Assembly (NCBI GenBank): GCA_017508015.1
Contig: JAFVZS010000070.1
Location: 1-50,659, forward strand
From: Lentisphaeria bacterium
GTDB lineage: Bacteria; Verrucomicrobiota; Lentisphaeria; Victivallales; Victivallaceae
DNA: 50,659 nt
Reading direction: 5' to 3'
Position numbers and translations under genes: made by a program
Part shown: positions 609 through 46,540 of the stretch, in pieces
How positions within the stretch are numbered: position 1 is the first letter of the stretch
Layout: each line of letters starts with the position of its first letter
The notes under the pieces: generated by a model
Databases searched by the model: none
What the model saw: the letters and a program-made list of their open reading frames with translations, nothing else
What the model was told of the DNA's origin: nothing

Positions 609-1003
609 CGTTTTCTTTGCCTGCTTTCTTTATAGAAAAGAACGCAGGGAATTTCGCTTTTCTTTGGTTACTTTCTTTTCTCGTGAAAATGCAGAATAAC
701 ATTTACGTTTTCTTTGCCTGCTTTCTTTATAGAAAAGAAAGTAGGGAATTTCGCTTTTCTTTGGTTACTTTCTTTTCTCGTGAGAATGTAGATGTAGAAT
801 GAAATTTCCGTTTTCTTTGCCTGCTTTCTTTATAGAAAAGAACGCAGGGAATCCCGCTTTTCTTTGGTTACTTTCTTTTCTCGTGAAAATGTAGATGTAG
901 AATGAAATTTCCGTTTTCTTTGCCTACTTTCTTTATAAAAAAGAAAGTAGGGAATCCCGCTTTTCTTTGGTTACTTTCTTTTCTCGTGAAAAGAAAGTAA
1001 CGG
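609..1003. repeat. tandem array of 4 near-identical units (97, 103, 103 and ~92 bp), each carrying hairpin-forming inverted repeats
   Basis: Units start at 609, 706, 809 and 912, each with CGTTTTCTTTGCC. Each unit has hairpin 1 (CCTRCTTTCTTT...AAAGAAMGYAGG), which is perfect with a 12-bp stem in unit 4 (923-951). Each also has the left arm of hairpin 2 (GTTACTTTCTTTTC). Only unit 4 completes hairpin 2: 970-983 pairs with 988-1001, a 14-bp stem with loop TCGT. There are no unique spacers. Confidence 0.9.
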
Positions 1004-3394
1004 CCAGGAGTGTTTGGGATAACGGGAGCGCATTTCGGCGCGGACAAGTTCCCAGGAGCCGGCCCAGAACCCCGGGAGATCGCAAGTTACCTGAACGGGG
1101 CGGCGTGCGGGGGAGAGCAATTCGATGCGCAGGGGGATGCGGTTTTTGCCGACGGTGGGGTGGGTATTGACGGTGTACAATTCCTGAATGATGATTCCGG
1201 CGGTAGGTTGAGGGCCGGAATAATTGATGGGGAATTTATGGCCGGATGGGGCGATGAAAAATTCCGGGCAGAGCCGATCGAGTTCAGAAAGGGTGATGTA
1301 ATCGATGGCGGAACGGAGGATGCTGAACCAGTCGGCTTTTTTTAAGTCGTTGAGATTATTGATGTTATCCGGGAAAAAGTTGGCGATGGATATAAAATAG
1401 GAGTATTCATCGGTCAAATCGGGCAGTTCATCCATGCCGCAGGATTTTGCGAAACGGATCCGTTGTAAAAGGGAAGAGGCGCGTTTGTTGTCGGCCGGTG
1501 GCAGAGGGATGGCGCGGCGGGCGGATTCTTTGAGCAGTGCGGGGATCACGGTTTCGCGCGGCACGGGACACAGGTGACGGGAAAGGGGCAATTCATCAAG
1601 ACATTTTTCGGTATAAGAGATCAATTTTCCGGAGTTGCTGTCAAAGGTGGTGACAGTTCTTGCGGAGATTTGTCCGGAGAAAAAAGTTTCGATAGTTGAC
1701 CGGTCGATGGGCAGTGCCAGACGGATGGCGGCATTGGCGGCAGAAGTGCCGTCGATACGGGCGATGGCGAGGAACTCATTTTTACGCAGGAAGTCATCTT
1801 CTCTGACAGATGCGGCACTGCCGTTGGCCAGTTGAAAGGTGGTTCCGTGGGAGGAACGGTTGCGGGCGATGTATTCCGGGAAGGCGATGGCGATGAGCAG
1901 ACCGGGATCATCGGAAGAGTTTTCCGGAGCTGGAGGGAATATTTTAAGAAGCTGGGAAATGATGGTTTGCCGGATGTGTCCGGAGTTTTTGCCGGAATCC
2001 AACTGCCGGATACGTTCGGTCAGGTCGGCGGTATTGAAGTGGGTGAAATCATCTTTTTCCTCTAAAATGGCGGCCAATTCGGCGGCGGTACGGCGCAGGG
2101 ATGGCGGGGCGAAGATCATCATGGCGGCCAGTCGCGGAGAAACCGGCATGACGGCAGCCTGTTTCCCGGCGGGAGTCGGGAGATTTGCCGGAGAGAGCAG
2201 AGAAAGTTTCTGAAGCAGAGCAGTTGCGGCGGCGACTGCGGCCGCCGGAGGGGGATCGAGCCAGCGCAAAGAGGCAGCATCGGCCCCCCAAACCCTTACG
2301 GAAAGGATCAAGCGGGATAATTCAGAGACGGTTATTTCCGGGGACGGAGCTTGGCAGAATTGTTCGAAAGTTAAACGGCTGTAACATCTTACAGCTTTGC
2401 CCGGGGCAGTTCTGCCTGCTCTGCCGGAGCGTTGAATGGCAGAAGCTTTGGTGATTCGTCCGGTTTCAAGAAAGGTCATTTGTGCACCGGGGTGATATAC
2501 GGCCCGCTTTCCCCAGCCGGAATCAATAACGCATGAGATATTGTCGATGGTCAGGCTGCTTTCGGCGACATTGGTAGCCAGAATAATGTTGTGCACATCC
2601 GGCGGCGGCGGGGCCATGGCGGCATGCTGTTCGGCAAGAGAGAGCGAACCATGAAGGACACGGGTTTGGAAATTTTTTCCAAGAGATTGATCCAGAATCA
2701 GTTTACATTTTCTGATCTCTTCGGCACCGGGCAGGAAAACCAGAATATTTCCATTGGAGATATGGAGATTTTCCAGAACCGCCCGGGCGGTTTGCCGGGG
2801 GATTTCCCGGATATCCGGCGGAGTTTCGCGATAGGAGATGTCGACCGGAAAAGTGCGTCCGGGGACCGTGATAAGCGGTGCGTGGATAAAGTCGGCGGTG
2901 CGCTGGGATTCCAATGTGGCAGACATGATGACCAGAATCAGATCATCGCGCAGGGAATCCCGGATATCCAGAACGAGTGTCAGGGCCAAATCCGATTCGG
3001 CAGAGCGTTCGTGAAATTCATCGAATATGATGGCATTTATTCCTTCAAGAGCCGGATCATGCTGGAGCATTTGCAGTAAAATTCCGGGGGTGACAGCCAG
3101 AATGCCGTCAGAGTGACAGCGGCACTGTTCGCCGCGGACGGCGAATCCGGTTTCTTTACCGACGGTGAGGTTGTGGAGTTTGGCGATTCCGCAGGCGGCG
3201 GCCCGGGCGGCGATCCGGCGCGGTTCAACGAGGATGGTCATGCCGCCGGGAGAAAATTCATTGATCAACGGTGGCACGAGCATGGTTTTCCCGGCACCGG
3301 GTTCAGCGGAAATCACCGCCATACGGCAGGCAGACAACGCATTACGGAGCTCATCAAGCTGATGATAAAGCGGCAGATTCGGAAATTGATTCAT
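971..3394 (-). CDS. hrpB: ATP-dependent RNA helicase HrpB (DEAH-box)
   Basis: 807 aa. Walker A AEPGAGKT, DEFHERS (DEAH box), MSATL motif, and a C-terminal RYPKHSWP as in HrpB. The last 9 codons and the stop lie inside the repeat hairpin at 970-1001. Confidence 0.95.
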   Translation of the reverse strand: MNQFPNLPLYHQLDELRNALSACRMAVISAEPGAGKTMLVPPLINEFSPGGMTILVEPRRIAARAAACGIAKLHNLTVGKETGFAVRGEQCRCHSDGILAVTPGILLQMLQHDPALEGINAIIFDEFHERSAESDLALTLVLDIRDSLRDDLILVIMSATLESQRTADFIHAPLITVPGRTFPVDISYRETPPDIREIPRQTARAVLENLHISNGNILVFLPGAEEIRKCKLILDQSLGKNFQTRVLHGSLSLAEQHAAMAPPPPDVHNIILATNVAESSLTIDNISCVIDSGWGKRAVYHPGAQMTFLETGRITKASAIQRSGRAGRTAPGKAVRCYSRLTFEQFCQAPSPEITVSELSRLILSVRVWGADAASLRWLDPPPAAAVAAATALLQKLSLLSPANLPTPAGKQAAVMPVSPRLAAMMIFAPPSLRRTAAELAAILEEKDDFTHFNTADLTERIRQLDSGKNSGHIRQTIISQLLKIFPPAPENSSDDPGLLIAIAFPEYIARNRSSHGTTFQLANGSAASVREDDFLRKNEFLAIARIDGTSAANAAIRLALPIDRSTIETFFSGQISARTVTTFDSNSGKLISYTEKCLDELPLSRHLCPVPRETVIPALLKESARRAIPLPPADNKRASSLLQRIRFAKSCGMDELPDLTDEYSYFISIANFFPDNINNLNDLKKADWFSILRSAIDYITLSELDRLCPEFFIAPSGHKFPINYSGPQPTAGIIIQELYTVNTHPTVGKNRIPLRIELLSPARRPVQVTCDLPGFWAGSWELVRAEMRSRYPKHSWPLLSFHEKRK

Positions 3395-4454: not shown

Positions 4455-5312
4455 ATGAATCGGAGTTCTTTTTGGGTTTTTTTGACCATGTTTTGCGTTG
4501 CGGTTGCCGGAGCGGCGGAACGTCCGTCAGTAAAAGGTGTGGTCAATGCAGATGTTTTAAATTTGCGTCAGGGGCCGGGGTTGCAGCAGCCGGTAGTCGG
4601 CCGGATCACGGAAAAAAGCGAAGTGGAAATTTTACGGGTGACCGGAAATTGGCTGGAAATAAAAGCCCCGTCCACCTTGGCCGTTTATGTTTCCGAGGCC
4701 CGTATCGGCCGGGATGGCGTATTGACCGGCGAGTTGAATATGCGTACGGCGATGAGCAGTAAAGCTCCGTGTCTTGGAACTTTGCCCAAAGGGACCAAAG
4801 TAAATAAAATCGGTGAATCCCGCAATGGTTGGGTACGTATTGAGTTGCCCGCAGAAGCCGGTATTTCGGTATATGCCGCATCATTTCTGGTGACCTTTGA
4901 TTCATCCAAATTTGATGCCGGCGGCAATATCATCGGTACTGTTCCGGCAGAAGCTCCGGCGACTGCTGAAAAACCTGCCGCCGCAGAAGTTCCGGCGACT
5001 GCTGAAAAACCTGCCGCCGCAGAAGTTCCGGCGACTGCTGAAAAACCTGCCGCCGCAGAAGCTCCGGCCGCCGCTGACAAGATCGAGTTGACCGGTTATG
5101 TCTGCAAATGGAAATACAGCACTGCCAAAGAGTGCGATTACACTTTGCTTGATGAACCCAATGGTTTCAATCTGGCTTTCATTTTCAGTGAAACTCCTGC
5201 TGAACTTGCTGCGCTTGAAGGTAAAAAGGTAAAAGTTTCCGGAAGCAATGCCGGCAGATTCGGCAATAACGGAGTGATCATTATCAAAGTGGACAGCATT
5301 GCTGAATTATAA
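4455..5312 (+). CDS. secreted protein with two SH3b-like domains, a repeat linker and a C-terminal domain
   Basis: Signal peptide MNRSSFWVFLTMFCVAVAGAA. Two segments match the pattern 'G.V....LN.R.GP.......G......V.......GNW..I' / 'NGWVRIELP', typical of bacterial SH3 domains. A Pro/Ala/Glu repeat linker follows. Confidence 0.85.
   Translation: MNRSSFWVFLTMFCVAVAGAAERPSVKGVVNADVLNLRQGPGLQQPVVGRITEKSEVEILRVTGNWLEIKAPSTLAVYVSEARIGRDGVLTGELNMRTAMSSKAPCLGTLPKGTKVNKIGESRNGWVRIELPAEAGISVYAASFLVTFDSSKFDAGGNIIGTVPAEAPATAEKPAAAEVPATAEKPAAAEVPATAEKPAAAEAPAAADKIELTGYVCKWKYSTAKECDYTLLDEPNGFNLAFIFSETPAELAALEGKKVKVSGSNAGRFGNNGVIIIKVDSIAEL
4948..5076 (+). repeat. in-frame 36-bp tandem repeat (3 full units plus one partial) encoding AEVPATAEKPAA
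   Basis: The unit GCAGAAGTTCCGGCGACTGCTGAAAAACCTGCCGCC occurs at 4948, 4984 and 5020 and is nearly perfect. A partial fourth copy runs to 5076. Confidence 0.9.
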
Positions 5313-8428: not shown

Positions 8429-9586
8429 ATGGAGGAAAACAGAAGCGTAATTACCAATGAATTTGACCGCAGCGGGCGTTACGATGCCGGGTTGAAGTCA
8501 TTGGCCAGAAGTTTGCGGGTGGCGTTTTTGCTGCTGCTGATCGGCATTATTGCCACATTGATCTACTTCGTCAGCGGTGCCGGATATTTCTCGGTTGAAC
8601 CGCAGGAGGCGGTCATCGTTACCCGTTTCGGTCGTATCGTTGGCACTTTTACCACCGGCGGACACTGGTTCCTGCCTTACCCGGTCAATCAATTCATCCG
8701 GGTCAAGACCAGTCAGCAGCTGTTGGAAATCGATTTCGCCGCTGAGGAAAATCCCTCCGGTGAGGGTGGCGCTTTGCAGCCCGGGCGGGATAATTACATT
8801 ATCACCGGCGATGCCAATATCGTTCACAGTTCATGGACGATCGCCTATCGAGTGGAGAATCCGGAAAAATACTATTTGACTTTGCTGACACCGCAATTCC
8901 CGGTGGCAAACGGTCAGGTCGTGCCGGATGAAGAATTTACCGATGCGGATGGCATGGTCGGCACCCGCGGACCGACTACCTTTTTGCGTAATCTTTTCCG
9001 TCAGGCGGTAATCAATGTCACGGCAGAATCACATGTCAATGATATCCTTTATGCCGGTCAGAGTACTTACAGTGAGGAAGTCCGCCGGGAATTTACCCGC
9101 CTGATCACCGGAAGTGATTGCGGTATCGTGATCGAAAATGTCGGTCTCAACCGTATTTATCCGCCGGTCAAAACCAAAGCCGCATTTGAAGAAGTTACCT
9201 CTGCGATCAATGCCAGTTCAGCAATGCGCAACGAAGCTCTGGCTTACCGGGTCGCCCAGGAAAATGAGGCAGTTTCCCGGAGTGCGGCGATCATCGCAGA
9301 TGCTGATGCTTACAAACAGCGCATTACCGCCCAGCTCGGCGCACAGAGTGCTTATTTCAACAAAATTTATGAACAACACATCCTCCATCCGGGAACACTG
9401 ACGATGGCTCTTTACACCGATATGCTTCGGGAAGTGGCGGCGGCGATTCAGGGCGACAAGTTTCTGCTTGACAGTTCCGGCAGAGCGTTGTGGTTGAGAA
9501 TTAATCCGGAACGCCGAAGCTCCGGTGCCGGCAGCGGAACAGCCGGTTCGGCGGATAATGCCGCCGCATCACAGGAGGGCAGATAA
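8429..9586 (+). CDS. SPFH/band-7 protein, HflK-like
   Basis: N-terminal TM followed by FSVEPQEAVIVTRFGRIVG...GGHWFLPYP. The track ORF starts at GTG 8414, a 4-nt overlap with the upstream gene. ATG 8429 has an AAAGG SD, so the start is uncertain by 15 nt. Confidence 0.85.
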   Translation: MEENRSVITNEFDRSGRYDAGLKSLARSLRVAFLLLLIGIIATLIYFVSGAGYFSVEPQEAVIVTRFGRIVGTFTTGGHWFLPYPVNQFIRVKTSQQLLEIDFAAEENPSGEGGALQPGRDNYIITGDANIVHSSWTIAYRVENPEKYYLTLLTPQFPVANGQVVPDEEFTDADGMVGTRGPTTFLRNLFRQAVINVTAESHVNDILYAGQSTYSEEVRREFTRLITGSDCGIVIENVGLNRIYPPVKTKAAFEEVTSAINASSAMRNEALAYRVAQENEAVSRSAAIIADADAYKQRITAQLGAQSAYFNKIYEQHILHPGTLTMALYTDMLREVAAAIQGDKFLLDSSGRALWLRINPERRSSGAGSGTAGSADNAAASQEGR

Positions 9587-9588
9587 TC

Positions 9589-11622
9589 ATGAGCGAACAT
9601 ATTCATAATCATAACGGCGAGTGCTGCTGCGGACATGACCACGGTCATGATCATCATGATCACTGCAGCTGCGGTCACGATCATAAAGAAGACAGCACTT
9701 GCATTTGCGGTCACGATCACAAAGCCGAGGGCGGTGTGGGCCACGACCGTAGTATGGGCAGAGTTTTCTTTGCTCTGATCGGCGGTATTCTTACGGCCAA
9801 CTCTTTCATTCTCAACGCCTGGCTCCCGGAACAGGAGTTCGCCGCCAACATGTCGGCTCTTTTCGGTGCTTTCATTCTGGCTCTGCCGATCATTATCACG
9901 GCAGTCAAGGATCTGGTGCGCGGCAAGGTCTACATGAATGAGCTGGTGGCTCTGGCGATTCTGGCGGCTTTGGTCAAAGCAGATTTCCAGACGGCCGGTA
10001 TCATCGCATTTTTCCTGCTGGTCACGATCATTATTGAAACCCGTACTGCCAGCGGAGCGCAACGCTCCATTGAAGAGCTGATCAAACTGACACCGAATAC
10101 GGCCAATTTGATCGGTGAAGACGGCAGTGAGCAGGAAGTTGCCGCCCAGAATTTGAAAGTCGGTGACCGCATCCGTATCCGTCCGGGTGAGAACTTTCCG
10201 GTTGACGGCCGGATCATTGCCGGTGAAAGTACGGTGAATCAGGCTTCGATCACCGGTGAATCAGTGCCGGTGGAAAAGGTCGCCGGGGAAGATGTTTTTG
10301 CCGGTACGCAGAATTTGACCGGTGCGGTCGATGTCACCGTGACCAAAGTCGGCGGCGAAACTACTCTGGGCAAAGTTAAAGAGATGATCATGCAGGCCGA
10401 AGCCAGCCGTACTCCGGTGGTGCGGATCATTGACCGTTATGCCGGATATTACACTCCGACGGTGCTGATGATCGCCTGGATCACCTGGTGGTTCAGCCGG
10501 GACATGAATTCCGTGATCGCGTTTCTGGTGATCGCCTGTCCCTGTGCCGTGGTGCTGGCCACTCCGACTGCAGTGGTTGCGGCGGTGGCCGCAGCGGCCC
10601 GGTTGGGAATTTTTATCAAAAATATCAGCCATCTGGAATTGGCCAGCCGGATTTCGGCATTTGTTTTTGACAAGACCGGTACGCTGACCGATGGTTTGCT
10701 CTCGGTGGTCAAATTGCAGGGCAGTGAAGGTGTTTCGCCGGCTGAATTGCTCAGTTGTGCCGCTTCAGTGGAACGCTTCAGTAATCACCCGACGGCATTG
10801 GCGATCATCAAACTGGCTGAAGAAGCCGAATTGGAACTCGATGATGTCACCGGTTTTGCGGAGGTGCACGGCCGGGGGGTTTCCGGTACGGCCAACGGTT
10901 CAGTCTGCCGGGTAGGCCGGGCCAACTGGATGCGTGAGAATGGTTTGAGTGTGCCGGAAAGTGATCCGGAAGAGGCCAGCGGTATGAGCGTGGTTTATGT
11001 CAGTAAAGATGATAAATTGCTCGGCTGGATCGGTTTCCGTGACAAGATACGCAAAGAATCCCAGGTGCTGCTTTCTGATTTGCGCCGTTTGGGAGTGCGT
11101 TACTGCGCGATGGTCACCGGTGACCGGCAATCAGTGGCTGAAGAGGTCGCCGGACAGCTCAATATCGATGAATTCAAAAGCGGTTGTCTGCCGGAAACCA
11201 AAGTGGAATTTGTGGAAAATGTCAAGCGTGATCATACCGTGGCAGTGGTTGGTGACGGTGTGAATGACGCTCCGGCACTTGCCGCCGGTGATCTGGGTAT
11301 CGCCATGGGGGCAATCGGCAGTGACATTGCGATCAACAGTGCTTCTGTGGCGTTGATGACCAACGATCTGCGCCGTATCGCCATGCTGATATTCCTGGCT
11401 AAAAAATCTCAGGTGGTCATCAATCAGAACCTGATTTTCGGAATGCTCTTTGTCTTTGGCGGTATGATCCTTTCCATTGTCGGTCTGATGACCCCGATCT
11501 GGGCTGCTGTGATCCATGCCGGCAGTACTCTGGTGATCGTATTCAACAGTGCCCGTCTGGTGCGTACCGGTGAGGAATTGACTCTGGCGGATAAATCTGA
11601 TTCAGACCAACAATTGTCGTAA
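9589..11622 (+). CDS. heavy-metal translocating P1B-type ATPase (Zn/Cd/Co-like) with a His/Cys-rich N-terminus
   Basis: 677 aa. Motifs TGES, CPC in TM6, DKTGTLT and GDGVNDAPAL; about 8 TM helices. The N-terminal 55 aa contain three CxCGHDH motifs. Confidence 0.95.
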   Translation: MSEHIHNHNGECCCGHDHGHDHHDHCSCGHDHKEDSTCICGHDHKAEGGVGHDRSMGRVFFALIGGILTANSFILNAWLPEQEFAANMSALFGAFILALPIIITAVKDLVRGKVYMNELVALAILAALVKADFQTAGIIAFFLLVTIIIETRTASGAQRSIEELIKLTPNTANLIGEDGSEQEVAAQNLKVGDRIRIRPGENFPVDGRIIAGESTVNQASITGESVPVEKVAGEDVFAGTQNLTGAVDVTVTKVGGETTLGKVKEMIMQAEASRTPVVRIIDRYAGYYTPTVLMIAWITWWFSRDMNSVIAFLVIACPCAVVLATPTAVVAAVAAAARLGIFIKNISHLELASRISAFVFDKTGTLTDGLLSVVKLQGSEGVSPAELLSCAASVERFSNHPTALAIIKLAEEAELELDDVTGFAEVHGRGVSGTANGSVCRVGRANWMRENGLSVPESDPEEASGMSVVYVSKDDKLLGWIGFRDKIRKESQVLLSDLRRLGVRYCAMVTGDRQSVAEEVAGQLNIDEFKSGCLPETKVEFVENVKRDHTVAVVGDGVNDAPALAAGDLGIAMGAIGSDIAINSASVALMTNDLRRIAMLIFLAKKSQVVINQNLIFGMLFVFGGMILSIVGLMTPIWAAVIHAGSTLVIVFNSARLVRTGEELTLADKSDSDQQLS

Positions 11623-38240: not shown

Positions 38241-39395
38241 ATGAAAACGAAGTGTAAACAAGCTGTGGATAAAAATTTGCAATGGTTTTGCTCCTCCGGG
38301 GTGATGGTTCCGGAAAATGGTTTATGGGGGGTGGCCGAGCGTCTGGCTGTGAAAAGTGGCAATGCGGCATTGGATGAGATACTGGAGTCATTTCCGGCCT
38401 GGACGGAAAAGTCTGATTGTTATGTTATCGAACAGCGGCGGGCAGATTGCAACTTCCAGGCGGCATGGCTTTTTCTGCTGGCTGACCGGATTTTTCCGGG
38501 GTGCGGTTACGGGGAGACCGGAAAGAATATTCTGGATTTTCTCTATTGCCGCAGCGGTTTGCTGGAGCGCAAAAAAAGTGCCGATATCCCCGGCAACTGG
38601 AATTGGTCACACATCAAGCGGGATTCCGTAGTATATTTTGATGATGAAGCGTGGTGCATATTCATCCAGTTGCGTATTGCCGATGAATTTCCGGAATTGG
38701 ATAAGCGGTACAATATGCGTTTCTGGGCGGAAACTCTGGCTGAAAGTTTATATGCCGGTGCAACTGACCCGGATAAGACTCCACTGTGGCGGGGGGAATT
38801 GGCCAAGCCGCACTGGGGGGCTCTGGCCGCCATGGCTCTGGCCCAAAGCGGTGGAAAAAATATGGATAAGTACCGGAAGTTTTGTCTGGAATATTTCCGC
38901 AATGTCGATATTCCCAACGTGAGCGAATATGCGTATGCTCTTTTGGGAGCGGTAAATTGTATGTTGAAATTCGGCAGGGAAGATTTTTTACCTTTGGTGG
39001 AAAAATATGTTGATGCCATTATTTCCGTTTGTGATCCGGCAAGCGGCTTGCCTCCTTCGGAACACAGCCGGGAAACTCCGGCGGGTAAAAATCTGGCGGA
39101 TTTGATCTACACGGTCAACTGGGCCGTTGCCGGTCTGCGGGAAGCCGGATTGCTTCTCGGAGGCAAATGTACTGAAATCGCCGGAAAAATTCTGGATTTT
39201 CTGCATAGTATACAGGATGATTCAGCCAATAAAACATTCAACGGCTGCTGGCGGGGAATGTATGATACTGCCACCGGCAAATGGGGCGGCGGTGATCGTT
39301 TTGAAGGTGGCGGGAACAGTATTTATACCGGCTGGACCAATGCGCCGATCGCATTGACCATGCTGTTTGAATATATGGGAAAAAGTATGTTTTAA
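38241..39395 (+). CDS. hypothetical cytoplasmic protein, possibly an (alpha/alpha)-toroid enzyme
   Basis: 384 aa from ATG 38241 (SD AAAGGAG; the track start at TTG 38199 overlaps operator O2). The protein is helix-rich and W-rich with no signal peptide. I did not confidently recognise a family. Confidence 0.8.
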
Positions 39396-39418
39396 TGGTC
39401 ATGAAAGGAGATTGGGAA

Positions 39419-40336
39419 ATGTTGAAAAAAAGAAAAGTTTTTACGTTGATCGGGTTGCTGGTAAGCACAGTTATCTCACCATTGCATTTTTTGACACCAA
39501 AATCTTACCGCACGGCATCATCAAAAAGTATCCCGCTTTTCTTTGAAAGCGAAAGGGGGCGCGGGGGAAAGGGAAAACTCTCTTTTCCCGTGAAAAGAAA
39601 GTTTTCCTTGTCCACCGCACACTCATTTACTTTAATAGAATTGCTGGTGGTCATTGCCATTATTGCCATTTTAGCGGCGATCCTGCTTCCGGCACTTAAT
39701 TCTGCCCGTGAGCGGGGGCGGGCAGCAAGTTGCATAGCCAACATGAAGCAGATGATTTCCGGTTATCATCTGTATTGGGATGATGCAGATATGCCGTTGC
39801 CGCCGCGTATGACCAGAGAGGGCAGTGGCAAGCCGTGGTTGAGCTGGTATTGGTATCTGGCTCCTTATATTGGTCTGCCCCGGTATGAGTCGCACAGCAA
39901 ATTGCTGGCAGATATGCGCTCCAGACAGGGCAGTTCGGTTTATGATTGTCCGTCGGTGGTCAAGCATGAGAATAACGAATTGGGCGGGGCTCCGACCTAT
40001 AAATTCACGGCGCACTACTTTACCCGAACCATGCATGGCAGAACGCAGGATGCCGATCCGAATTGTCCCAACACCTCTGATACTCTGGTTTTTGTCGATG
40101 GAGATGATGGCAATACGGCGCAAAGTTTCGGTACGGCGGCATGGTATCGGCTGACCAGACACACCGGAGAGAAAGAGTATGGTCAGGGGGCCGGTGCGCA
40201 TAATGGTTCGGTGACGGTCGGTTTTTATGATGCTCATGTCGGCATGGTGAAAACCGCCAGTTACACGGATGCTCAAGGAAAGTTGCGTATGGGTATTCCC
40301 GGCACGGTCGCTGAATATGAAAAATATTGGTATTGA
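39419..40336 (+). CDS. prepilin-type N-terminal cleavage/methylation domain protein, H-X9-DG (DUF1559-like) family, with a duplicated leader
   Basis: Canonical [29 protein letters not shown] starts at codon F=39626. The C-terminus has [12 protein letters not shown] (H-X9-D). ATG 39419 has a strong AAGGAG SD (39405-39410) and encodes a first, degenerate leader, [15 protein letters not shown]. An alternative in-frame GTG lies at 39590. Confidence 0.88.
39530..39607 (+). repeat. copy of the hairpin repeat family seen at 609-1003, embedded in the prepilin-like gene 5' region
   Basis: ATCCCGCTTTTCTTTG (39530-39545) is identical to 851-866 and 954-969. The hairpin 39572-39587 / 39592-39607 pairs 15 of 16 bp with loop CCGT. 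Its core CTTTTCCCGTGAAAAGAAAGT matches 20 of 21 nt of CTTTTCTCGTGAAAAGAAAGT at 978-998. Confidence 0.85.
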
Positions 40337-45835: not shown

Positions 45836-46540
45836 ATGAAACGATTTTTATATTCAATTGTGCTGTCGGCGGTCGTTTTTCTGACCGGTTCCGCCGCTGA
45901 ATCGGGACATGCCGCCGCAGAAAAAGCTGCCGCCGAAAAACTGGCCGCCGAAAAAGCCGCCGCCGAAAAACTGGCCGCCGAAAAAGCCGCCGCAGAAAAA
46001 CTGGCCGCCGAAAAAGCCGCCGCAGAAAAGGCGGTCATCGCAGCTGTGACCGGGCACCGGAGTGCATTGTTGAGTACAGATTTCAAGGCATTGCTTGCTC
46101 ACTGCTCTTCTGATTACCGGGAAACTGACGGCAATAGCCGCAGCCGCAGTTATGAGGAACTGGAAAAACTGGCCGGATATTTTCAATTGATGCAAAGTTC
46201 TGACGATCTGGAAGTGGTCATGGAAAATGCTCTGCTGCTTCAGGGCAGTTCCATGAGTGATTTCCAGCGGCAGCAGATCATTTCCGAAAAAAACAGTGCG
46301 CGCGGCAAGGAGCTTCTGACCATGCTTCGCACCAATTTCGCCAAACTGGCGGCTCAGGGACGGGAATTGGCCGCCCATATCCGGGTTTCTGCGGTGCGGA
46401 TAAATGGCGACCGGGCCACCGCAGTGTTGTATCTGACCGATCCGCTTTCCCGTAATACTTACCGCTGCGATTATCAACTGGTGAAACATGATGGCAAATG
46501 GCTGGTCAGCAGTACTGAAGTTAAAGGAACAGGCAAATGA
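45836..46540 (+). CDS. secreted NTF2-like (SnoaL/DUF4440-like) protein, paralog 1, with an AAEKAAAEKL repeat linker
   Basis: Signal peptide followed by the repeat linker. It shares a motif set with the next three genes (DF.ALL..C..DY...DG, SDDLEVV, QRQQI, DGKWLV). Confidence 0.82.
   Translation: MKRFLYSIVLSAVVFLTGSAAESGHAAAEKAAAEKLAAEKAAAEKLAAEKAAAEKLAAEKAAAEKAVIAAVTGHRSALLSTDFKALLAHCSSDYRETDGNSRSRSYEELEKLAGYFQLMQSSDDLEVVMENALLLQGSSMSDFQRQQIISEKNSARGKELLTMLRTNFAKLAAQGRELAAHIRVSAVRINGDRATAVLYLTDPLSRNTYRCDYQLVKHDGKWLVSSTEVKGTGK
45911..46033 (+). repeat. in-frame 30-bp tandem repeat (~4 units) encoding (AAEKAAAEKL)n
   Basis: GCCGCCGAAAAACTGGCCGCCGAAAAAGCC is repeated with single-base variants. 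Confidence 0.9.

Follow-up and report, generated by a model that had tools for sequence, protein, structure and literature searches.

An in-frame palindromic repeat in the class III signal-sequence region of a pilin-like DUF1559 gene from a Lentisphaeria bacterium

Hairpin-forming, multi-copy and modular repeats such as the repetitive extragenic palindromic (REP) and bacterial interspersed mosaic elements (BIME), the enterobacterial repetitive intergenic consensus (ERIC), BOX and Correia repeats resemble transposable elements of the miniature inverted-repeat type (MITEs) and are mainly intergenic, with A, B and C modules distinguished in BOX. The present work concerns a repeat that lies within a gene: in a 50,659-nt stretch of a Lentisphaeria bacterium (assembly GCA_017508015.1, contig JAFVZS010000070.1, positions 1 to 50,659; hereafter the window), a gene for a pilin-like DUF1559 protein encodes two copies of a prepilin-type FTLI module, separated by a hairpin-bearing segment. 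With the repeats named above, the Lentisphaeria repeat shares hairpins, modularity and the occurrence of intergenic and tandem-array copies (one array occupies 607-992 of the window), whereas its copies are mostly intragenic and constrained in frame, and neither terminal inverted repeats (judged by eye) nor short target duplications were seen.

The closest analogue, in mode of existence only, is the family of Rickettsia palindromic elements (RPEs), short palindromic repeats described as inserted in frame into open reading frames (ORFs) and translated (Ogata et al., 2000, via PMC10969869). As far as that source describes them, RPEs resemble the Lentisphaeria repeat in size (~100-190 nt), multi-copy palindromic nature, in-frame position, translation (predicted in the present case), presence or absence among orthologues and division into several families; here, the multi-copy palindrome, its in-frame position in ORFs and its presence or absence among orthologues were all found. 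The two differ in phylum, and no sequence relationship is expected. Moreover, RPEs as portrayed there hit many unrelated genes, whereas the Lentisphaeria repeat is concentrated at the class III signal site of a single family of paralogues: in the fetched loci, 88 of 124 hairpin cores lie directly upstream of a pilin-like N-terminus and 36 stand alone. Unlike RPEs, it also has duplicated FTLIELLV brackets, its own FTLIE codons (a replacement N-terminus), modular nesting and conversion mosaics. The repeat is thus in-frame palindromic repeat DNA of an already known kind, here lodged in a class III signal-sequence region.

The locus is probably best read, from comparison of sequences, as a short-leader DUF1559 gene with an acquired repeat segment, read through from the ATG at 39419, with the second module working and the insert tolerated. 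The features on which this reading draws are the following.

39419-40336, + strand: full ORF of the pilin-like DUF1559 protein (305 aa), including the long N-terminal extension, from the ORF list and matches to PF07963, PF07596 and TIGR02532
39404-39410, + strand: Shine-Dalgarno (SD)-like AAAGGAG, 8 nt 5' of the ATG at 39419
39419-39439, + strand: ancestral short leader, MLKKRKV
39440-39463, + strand: first FTLI module, FTLIGLLV, with Glu5 replaced by Gly, probably a relic of the host gene's original N-terminus
39464-39625, + strand: repeat element of 162 nt, or 54 codons
39498-39527, + strand: mosaic patch unlike the orthologues L105 and L121 and matching the paralogue P0031
39534-39551, + strand: small hairpin P1 (CGCTTTTCTTTGAAAGCG), inside the conserved CGCTTTTCTT motif, from the fold and the family alignment
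39562-39617, + strand: main hairpin P2, with a 24-bp consensus stem and the loop CCGT at 39588-39591, reaching 39555-39624 in this copy
39590-39592, + strand: in-frame GTG at the loop/stem junction, a candidate internal start, unlikely to be the main one
39626-39700, + strand: second, canonical module, a hydrophobic helix with Glu5

The Phe codons of the two FTLI blocks, at 39440 and 39626, are 186 nt apart in one frame with zero stops between them, and the other two frames of the segment contain 4 and 1 stops. This spacing and the start at ATG 39419 with a strong SD had been reported in a first-pass annotation made from the letters of the DNA alone, and all coordinates are confirmed; its estimate that such an open frame would arise by chance in about 5 percent of cases is close to the 3.2% of shuffles of the insert in which a 62-codon frame stays open. 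Its distinction between a degenerate first and a canonical second module likewise agrees with profile hidden Markov models, which recognise the second module only: PF07963 (N_methyl; 31.8 bits, cut-off 21.2) and TIGR02532 (21.6, cut-off 16.3) both fall on residues 68-90, and neither matches the first module, with its Gly at +5. The protein body matches PF07596 (DUF1559; 28.7 bits, cut-off 23.3). Its C-terminal motif reads H-X9-DA, not H-X9-DG, and no H-X9-DG NCBIfam model is among the matches of this protein at E up to 0.01.

That the segment is an insertion follows from comparison with orthologues. A search with the mature domain recovered four of them (P0027-P0030), 68-84% identical, all with a plain short leader and hence an empty site. 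At the DNA level, the contig L120, which carries the empty-site orthologue P0027, aligns with the window across SD, ATG and leader and then skips exactly 186 nt, its leader MSEKRKV running straight into the mature N-terminus; relative to such genes, the insertion equals the 162-nt element plus one FTLI repeat. Because L120 aligns through the SD, ATG and leader, and the insert-bearing copies L105 and L121 keep the SD and ATG, ATG 39419 with its SD is taken as the ancestral start. All three closer orthologues (window, L105, L121) have the insert, and since the empty-site genes are the more distant ones, the empty site is the simpler ancestral state.

At the DNA level, furthermore, the element behaves differently from the coding sequence around it. 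Nucleotide diversity by codon position, measured over 25 single-unit copies, was as follows.

First FTLI block, positions 1/2/3: 0.18/0.02/0.54
162-nt insert, positions 1/2/3: 0.14/0.17/0.15
Second FTLI block, positions 1/2/3: 0.11/0.00/0.46
Helix, positions 1/2/3: 0.16/0.06/0.56

The flanks, the first FTLI block with its host-like synonymous variation included, evolve like the coding sequence of old paralogues, whereas the insert shows no codon periodicity and a diversity far below that of the synonymous sites in the flanks. Conservation jumps at a sharp left boundary, CTGGT/A, that is GT/AAGCAC, and the right boundary is fuzzy, within the second FTLI block. The Ile codon of FTLIE is ATA in 58 of 91 hairpin-adjacent blocks, compared with 1 of 13 hairpin-less pilins and 7 of 59 upstream blocks; the element therefore brings its own FTLIE codons in most copies, and because it does so the unit is bracketed by two FTLIELLV-coding copies. 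Together with the four empty-site orthologues and the more than 100 genes that carry the repeat, this codon signature largely bears out the earlier suggestion that an element with a replacement leader had been inserted at the leader-coding sequence.

The repeat is widespread in Lentisphaeria. With the N-terminal 78 residues as query, a search of proteins turned up 26 that have a homologous insert, most of them short; the four whose source is named are all labelled as Lentisphaeria or Lentisphaerae metagenome-assembled genomes (MAGs), and each of these four carries the annotation 'partial'. Among 1.84 billion representatives, searched exhaustively and without a profile, 107 clusters at 50% identity contain the insert, most of them full-length at ~300 residues. 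In a scan of one genome per species, the 20-nt hairpin core occurred in more than 115 stretches from at least 22 Lentisphaeria/Victivallaceae MAGs among the matches listed; outside those MAGs the listed matches comprise one in Chitinophaga, likely due to chance, and one in a Clostridia-binned contig. The architecture is therefore no singleton, which the first-pass annotation had asked to be checked in relatives, and its mention of double-leader N-termini in Lentisphaerota-like proteins is verified by homologous N-termini and loci. The comparative data consist of MAGs and short metagenome contigs, and the loci were chosen by the exact hairpin core, so that the counts give no per-genome fraction of pilin-like genes with the insert. 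An assembly chimera was rejected as an explanation, given that the same architecture occurs in more than 100 contigs of at least two naming styles (NODE_, k141_) and that the insert has a sequence of its own.

Equally important is the conservation of the reading frame. All 59 FTLIELLV-like DNA motifs found within 600 nt upstream of a pilin N-terminus, any frame being counted, are in frame with the distal copy, at 25 distinct spacings between 84 and 594 nt, and 58 of them are separated from it by no stop. Among 67 complete hairpin-bearing genes the ORF is open through the hairpin in every case and an ATG lies upstream of the hairpin in 64, of which 62 have an SD with at least a 4/6 match to AGGAGG. 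Nested modules, tandem modules and in-frame deletions likewise preserve the frame. Some genes have a hairpin-encoded leader and no first FTLI block, as in L108 (MNKKNTPLFLKKGEGLGEGKNLFSREKKFFPSPIKP followed by FTL). The simplest reading is that ribosomes would start at the ancestral ATG and read through the insert. Translational bypassing of the T4 gene 60 or byp-like type was rejected, for it would not require the gap to stay an ORF, as it does here: no stop follows the first module, and the gap is a multiple of three in 59/59 cases and stop-free in 58/59.

The hairpin itself is well defined. Positions 39530-39625, folded as a single sequence, reach a minimum free energy of -42.6 kcal/mol (z = -4.9; none of 200 shuffles is as stable) and form the small hairpin at 39534-39551 and the long one at 39555-39624, with GTG 39590 straddling the loop/stem junction. 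The 16-bp hairpin at 39572-39607 noted in the first-pass annotation, with the GTG at its junction, is real; it is, however, only the core of this longer structure. When 47 diverse copies, some pilin-associated and others stand-alone, are aligned, the 24-bp consensus stem has 96% of its cells paired and 16 of its 24 pairs show compensatory changes on both sides; none of 500 shuffles attains such pairing or such covariation, and slid controls score much lower. Little or no variation occurs in the loop YCGT, the loop-proximal TCTTTTC/GAAAAGA and the 5' CGCTTTTCTT motif (whose greater part, CGCTTTT, is the same in 47/47 copies), and the distal stem varies; the invariance of the core is partly by construction because the copies were gathered by searching for that core. 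As the copies are related by descent, counts of alignment cells and of genes overstate the number of independent events. The conserved palindrome looks REP- or MITE-like and is equally compatible with an RNA element. Nowhere in the window does an Rfam 15 family match at its gathering score, E-value mode gives only chance-level hits (E >= 0.38) at 39000-40000, and neither a promoter-like site in the insert nor a + strand terminator at the hairpin was found; a mobile-promoter reading was accordingly dropped. A longer inverted repeat of 56 nt, in which the PLFFE region would pair with the second FTLI block, was also set aside, the 47-copy consensus fold giving it no support.

In 57 of 100 distinct modules, the hairpin's left arm and the adjoining flank, both G-rich (39554-39572 in the window), make up a canonical G-quadruplex motif of four runs, with variable loops and the G-runs kept. 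As a conserved feature the quadruplex was rejected on that count, and the window copy has three G-runs.

On the protein side, a class III signal peptide has a leader of 6-26 residues with an invariant Gly at -1, and its orientation follows the positive-inside rule (PMC4471445). The second module of the present protein shares with that description the Glu at +5, a hydrophobic tract of ~21 residues within a full hydrophobic helix, and a basic, predicted cytoplasmic leader, in addition to the profile matches. It departs from it in an extra degenerate copy of the motif, in Ser instead of Gly at -1 (Val precedes the first module) and in a leader that, if the start is at 39419, measures 69 residues and includes a hydrophobic stretch, compared with 12 residues from GTG 39590 and 7 before the first module. 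Across 104 family members the -1 residue is A in 47, P in 17, S in 13, H in 10, R in 7 and G in 2, and predicted leaders reach up to ~170 residues in relatives. Averaged over the first 19 residues, hydropathy across the family is 1.36 in the first block and 2.94 in the second (window 1.74 and 2.97), and the first block is degenerate or deleted in a sizeable minority of relatives. The peptide between the modules carries a mean net charge of +7.7 (range +3 to +15; window +8), so that under the positive-inside rule the extension is expected in the cytoplasm, with an N-in/C-out orientation of the second helix favoured.

Exchange between copies of the insert is apparent from mosaics. The window differs from L105 and L121 in the ~30-nt patch at 39498-39527, which is identical in P0031, a paralogue with an unrelated mature domain, and L121 has a different right hairpin arm and a different second FTLI block. 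These mosaics point to gene conversion between insert copies, for which the flanking FTLIELLV sequences would be the obvious homology arms. A likeness to Neisseria pilE/pilS lies in the exchange of segments among paralogous pilin sequences by gene conversion and in the G-rich tracts that adjoin the exchanged region; in contrast to pilE/pilS, the exchanged part is here the leader insert instead of an exposed variable domain, there are no silent cassettes, and nothing seen here connects the exchange with variation of the mature protein.

Taken together, a 186-nt segment of a Lentisphaeria-wide modular repeat would have been acquired right after codon 8 of the mature N-terminus. The segment may be described as a left module of the STVISS type, the small hairpin, a palindromic hairpin of 24-30 bp, which is also found alone in intergenic DNA, and a short K/R-coding tail with its own FTLIE codons. 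Homologous recombination (gene conversion) would copy the unit among paralogues, translation would proceed from the ancestral SD and ATG 39419 through the insert, and only in-frame, stop-free copies would persist. The proximal pseudo-signal would be decaying, here through the change of Glu5 to Gly, with the distal module as the working signal and anchor, and the basic insert peptide would stay cytoplasmic, the extension being either cut by prepilin peptidase or kept as a cytoplasmic tail. The multi-copy repeat, the insertion relative to orthologues, the lack of codon periodicity, the covarying stem and the conserved frame are directly supported. Most likely, the insert is tolerated repeat DNA at a place where extra residues do little harm, and not a dedicated switch.

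Several observations weigh against this reading. In L121 (380-495, one metagenome contig) a 1-nt deletion in the small hairpin, changing CTTTTCTTTG to CTTTTTTTG, breaks the upstream ORF; this break and a frame shift observed after the hairpin of P0040 are either pseudogenes or homopolymer sequencing errors. The excess of G-U over A-C cells in the stem alignment (55 to 11, from copies that are not independent) hints at selection on sense-strand RNA, and conservation of the hairpin module exceeds that of neutral sites in orthologues and paralogues, with 1 mismatch in ~125 nt between window and L105 against ~15% divergence around it, which could reflect a nucleotide-level function instead of recent conversion. 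The two FTLI repeats are at least 96% identical, rare codons included, in 5 of 25 genes, as against 1.2% of between-gene pairs, and so resemble a target-site duplication; the sharpness of the left junction agrees less well with conversion, whose end points vary, than with a transposase-mediated or site-specific event. Moreover, canonical cleavage by prepilin peptidase is uncertain, because Ser stands at -1 in this protein and just 2/104 members have Gly there, and the first module of this copy, fairly hydrophobic at 1.74, could itself insert into the membrane. Some of these points favour an account in which the hairpin is a functional cis-acting RNA of the pilin-like family, serving as translation brake, RNase III or stability site or protein-binding site, with the in-frame peptide as a by-product. 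The strong conserved stem with its compensatory changes, the loop and loop-proximal stem that stay invariant across divergent variants (partly by construction of the search), and a hairpin-to-FTLIELLVV distance fixed in 65 of 67 genes agree with it, as do the G-U excess and the near-identity of the orthologous hairpins. Palindromic DNA repeats of the REP or MITE kind, however, show the same covariation; copies also stand alone in varied intergenic contexts and in tandem arrays, many pilin-like genes and orthologues of this gene have no hairpin, no Rfam match, terminator tail or promoter accompanies it, chimeric A/B arms are tolerated (L121), and in several copies the loop or the left arm is interrupted by further modules, all of which makes such a role unlikely on balance. 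It is improbable, further, that the true start is GTG 39590, with a 12-residue leader, and that ribosomes translating the upstream part as a leader ORF open the hairpin, thereby gating or coupling internal initiation. The start codon would then lie in the hairpin loop, the resulting leader would be short, basic and normal-like, the loop GTG is in frame in 52/67 genes (...GERGKTSFPVKRSFSPLPKSA followed by FTL), and L121, with its broken upstream frame, has a separate gene called from position 451 near the loop GTG, the start codon itself being unchecked. Yet in 66/67 copies the sequence before that GTG matches the SD at only 2/6 positions, which amounts to no SD; in the other 15/67 genes (...GEGKNLFSREKKFFPSPIKP followed by FTL) the GTG is out of frame and, as read from the sequences, no other in-frame start occurs between hairpin and FTLIELLVV; the third frame, with a TGA in the loop, is used by 0/67 copies; the ancestral SD and ATG are retained; and an independent internal start would need neither the conserved inter-module frame nor the absence of stops. 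The earlier proposal of a hairpin-gated internal GTG is therefore not supported as a general mechanism.

Spread by a transposase is also conceivable: the element would be a non-autonomous transposon of the MITE, REP/RAYT (REP-associated tyrosine transposase) or IS200/IS605-PATE (palindrome-associated transposable element) type, inserted at an FTLIELLV-coding target and spread by means other than homologous recombination. The conserved loop and the sharp junction after CTGGT are compatible with REP/RAYT or IS200/IS605-PATE elements, the pattern of a conserved loop, loop-proximal stem and 5' CGCTTTT with varying distal stems resembles protein recognition of a hairpin, and stand-alone intergenic copies, the nearly identical flanking repeats of the five genes and the frequent breaking of contigs at the element point the same way. 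The probability of this account is nevertheless low. The ends of the 162-nt unit, AAGCAC... and ...CACACTCA, do not look, by eye, like the terminal inverted repeats that a classical MITE has along with a short target-site duplication; target-site duplication is rejected on average, with FTLI blocks no more alike within genes (0.79) than between them (0.78) over 25 copies, the five nearly identical pairs notwithstanding; the right boundary is fuzzy, inside the FTLIE codons; mosaic patches show active recombination; and no transposase was seen, none having been searched for. A reversible on/off or long/short switch by precise deletion and re-insertion between the FTLI..LLV repeats (phase variation), the second of the three readings offered in the first-pass annotation, can draw on the direct repeats that bracket the insert, on the existence of empty-site orthologues and on the FTLI codons of L120, which are nearer the second copy of the window (22/24 identical) than the first (17/24), as loss by recombination would predict; the further empty orthologues L122 and L123 are too diverged to tell which FTLI copy is the host's. 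The 23-nt blocks of this gene are, however, 78% identical with a longest common exact run of 8 nt, the runs of most family members do not exceed 11 nt and their repeats are usually as diverged as between genes, the insert is retained in all three close orthologues, and an insert-less variant of this gene was found neither by exact-protein look-up nor in a metagenome scan with the leader DNA (0 hits), which leaves a switch very improbable. Finally, the FTLIELLV-coding sequence may be imagined as a landing pad for self-propagating leader cassettes, each with its own FTLIE, basic leader and hairpin, in which hairpin and G-rich tract act as RNA control element or recombination initiator. This is a speculative and quite unlikely extension; if true in its RNA version, the hairpin would control dozens to hundreds of carbohydrate-cluster genes family-wide, and in its recombination version it would drive exchange among the 5' ends of paralogues, analogous to the pilE G-quadruplex.

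Further observations concern the variety of the modules and their settings. An additional module (ARSAGCEKTRPSVFVSLRRDESLRWGSD...) sits inside the hairpin loop, bracketed by duplicated PLFLKKGVGFGERGKTSFP and always in frame, in L010 (7509), L027 (7227), L037, L045, L084, L089 and L103, and a 19-nt insertion, CCCGGTGCCGACGTTCGGC, interrupts the left arm of the hairpin in L043 and L119, with near-identical variants in L020 and L110. Some genes carry three FTLIELLV blocks. Insert families that lack the hairpin are FTLIELLV-bracketed as well, namely KSSHLCCDREKPAHGQGKVD, VTAKQHCQNF... and TSQLCRDFFKRFICTDQYGCVRKH... (L057 6905, L076 841, L027 4106, L082 897; P0052). Judging from their sequences, the left ends of the insert families seem to be related among themselves and also to a VIA-QHCRHFF type whose beginning resembles that of the helix. 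The idea that the left module is itself a pilin helix, decayed and shifted in frame, was rejected, the local alignment not being significant (p = 0.13).

Outside pilin-like genes, the stand-alone cores inspected (L019, L081 and L101) are all intergenic. In L001, at 9307-9621 (the same as L063), two tandem units occupy the gap between BNR_4 and 2-Hacid_dh genes with no pilin body after them, probably a remnant after deletion. The Clostridia-binned contig L115 (RGIG3141, goat rectum), which holds one of the 124 cores, has two hairpin modules, at 1222-1337 and 1712-1827, with the same 5' motif and loop, which may reflect mis-binning or a repeat type that crosses phyla. Contigs often end inside or next to the element (L012, L014, L021, L046, L048, L054, L060, L067 and others), and short-read assembly of these genomes apparently breaks at the repeat.

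Within the window, the gene is the only pilin-like one, and it lies in a cluster made up of a LacI gene, a gene of unknown kind, the pilin-like gene itself and a gene for a large glycosidase. The window repeat analysis yielded one related array:

607-992, + strand: intergenic tandem array (3.8 units, 103 nt per unit), every unit having CGCTTTTCTTTG followed by a hairpin with the core TCTTTTC-YCGT-GAAAAGA

The units of this array show 92% matches and contain two hairpins each, one of them with the CGCTTTTCTTTG motif and core as in the pilin insert, and the last unit overlaps the 3' end of a helicase-like ORF (971-3394, - strand, 807 aa). Other tandem arrays in the window lie at 4947-5074 (period 36 nt, 97% matches) and 45914-46029 (30 nt, 96%).

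No description of this repeat was found in the full-text literature on Lentisphaerae, Victivallales, DUF1559 or the motif itself. In-frame repeat DNA is known mainly from Rickettsia, and a comparable case is now at hand in gut Lentisphaeria. Not described before are the focus of such a repeat on the signal-sequence region of one large family, where it doubles or triples the class III motif and gives predicted leaders 40-170 residues long, far more than the 6-26 described, and a clean signature of frame conservation, with 59 of 59 motifs in frame at 25 spacings. On the practical level, start codons, proteins labelled as partial and contig breaks in these MAGs are affected. For signal-peptide biology, the locus raises the question of how much N-terminal leader a class III signal tolerates, and for evolution it suggests how repeats may spread through families of paralogues when conserved coding sequence provides the homology arms.

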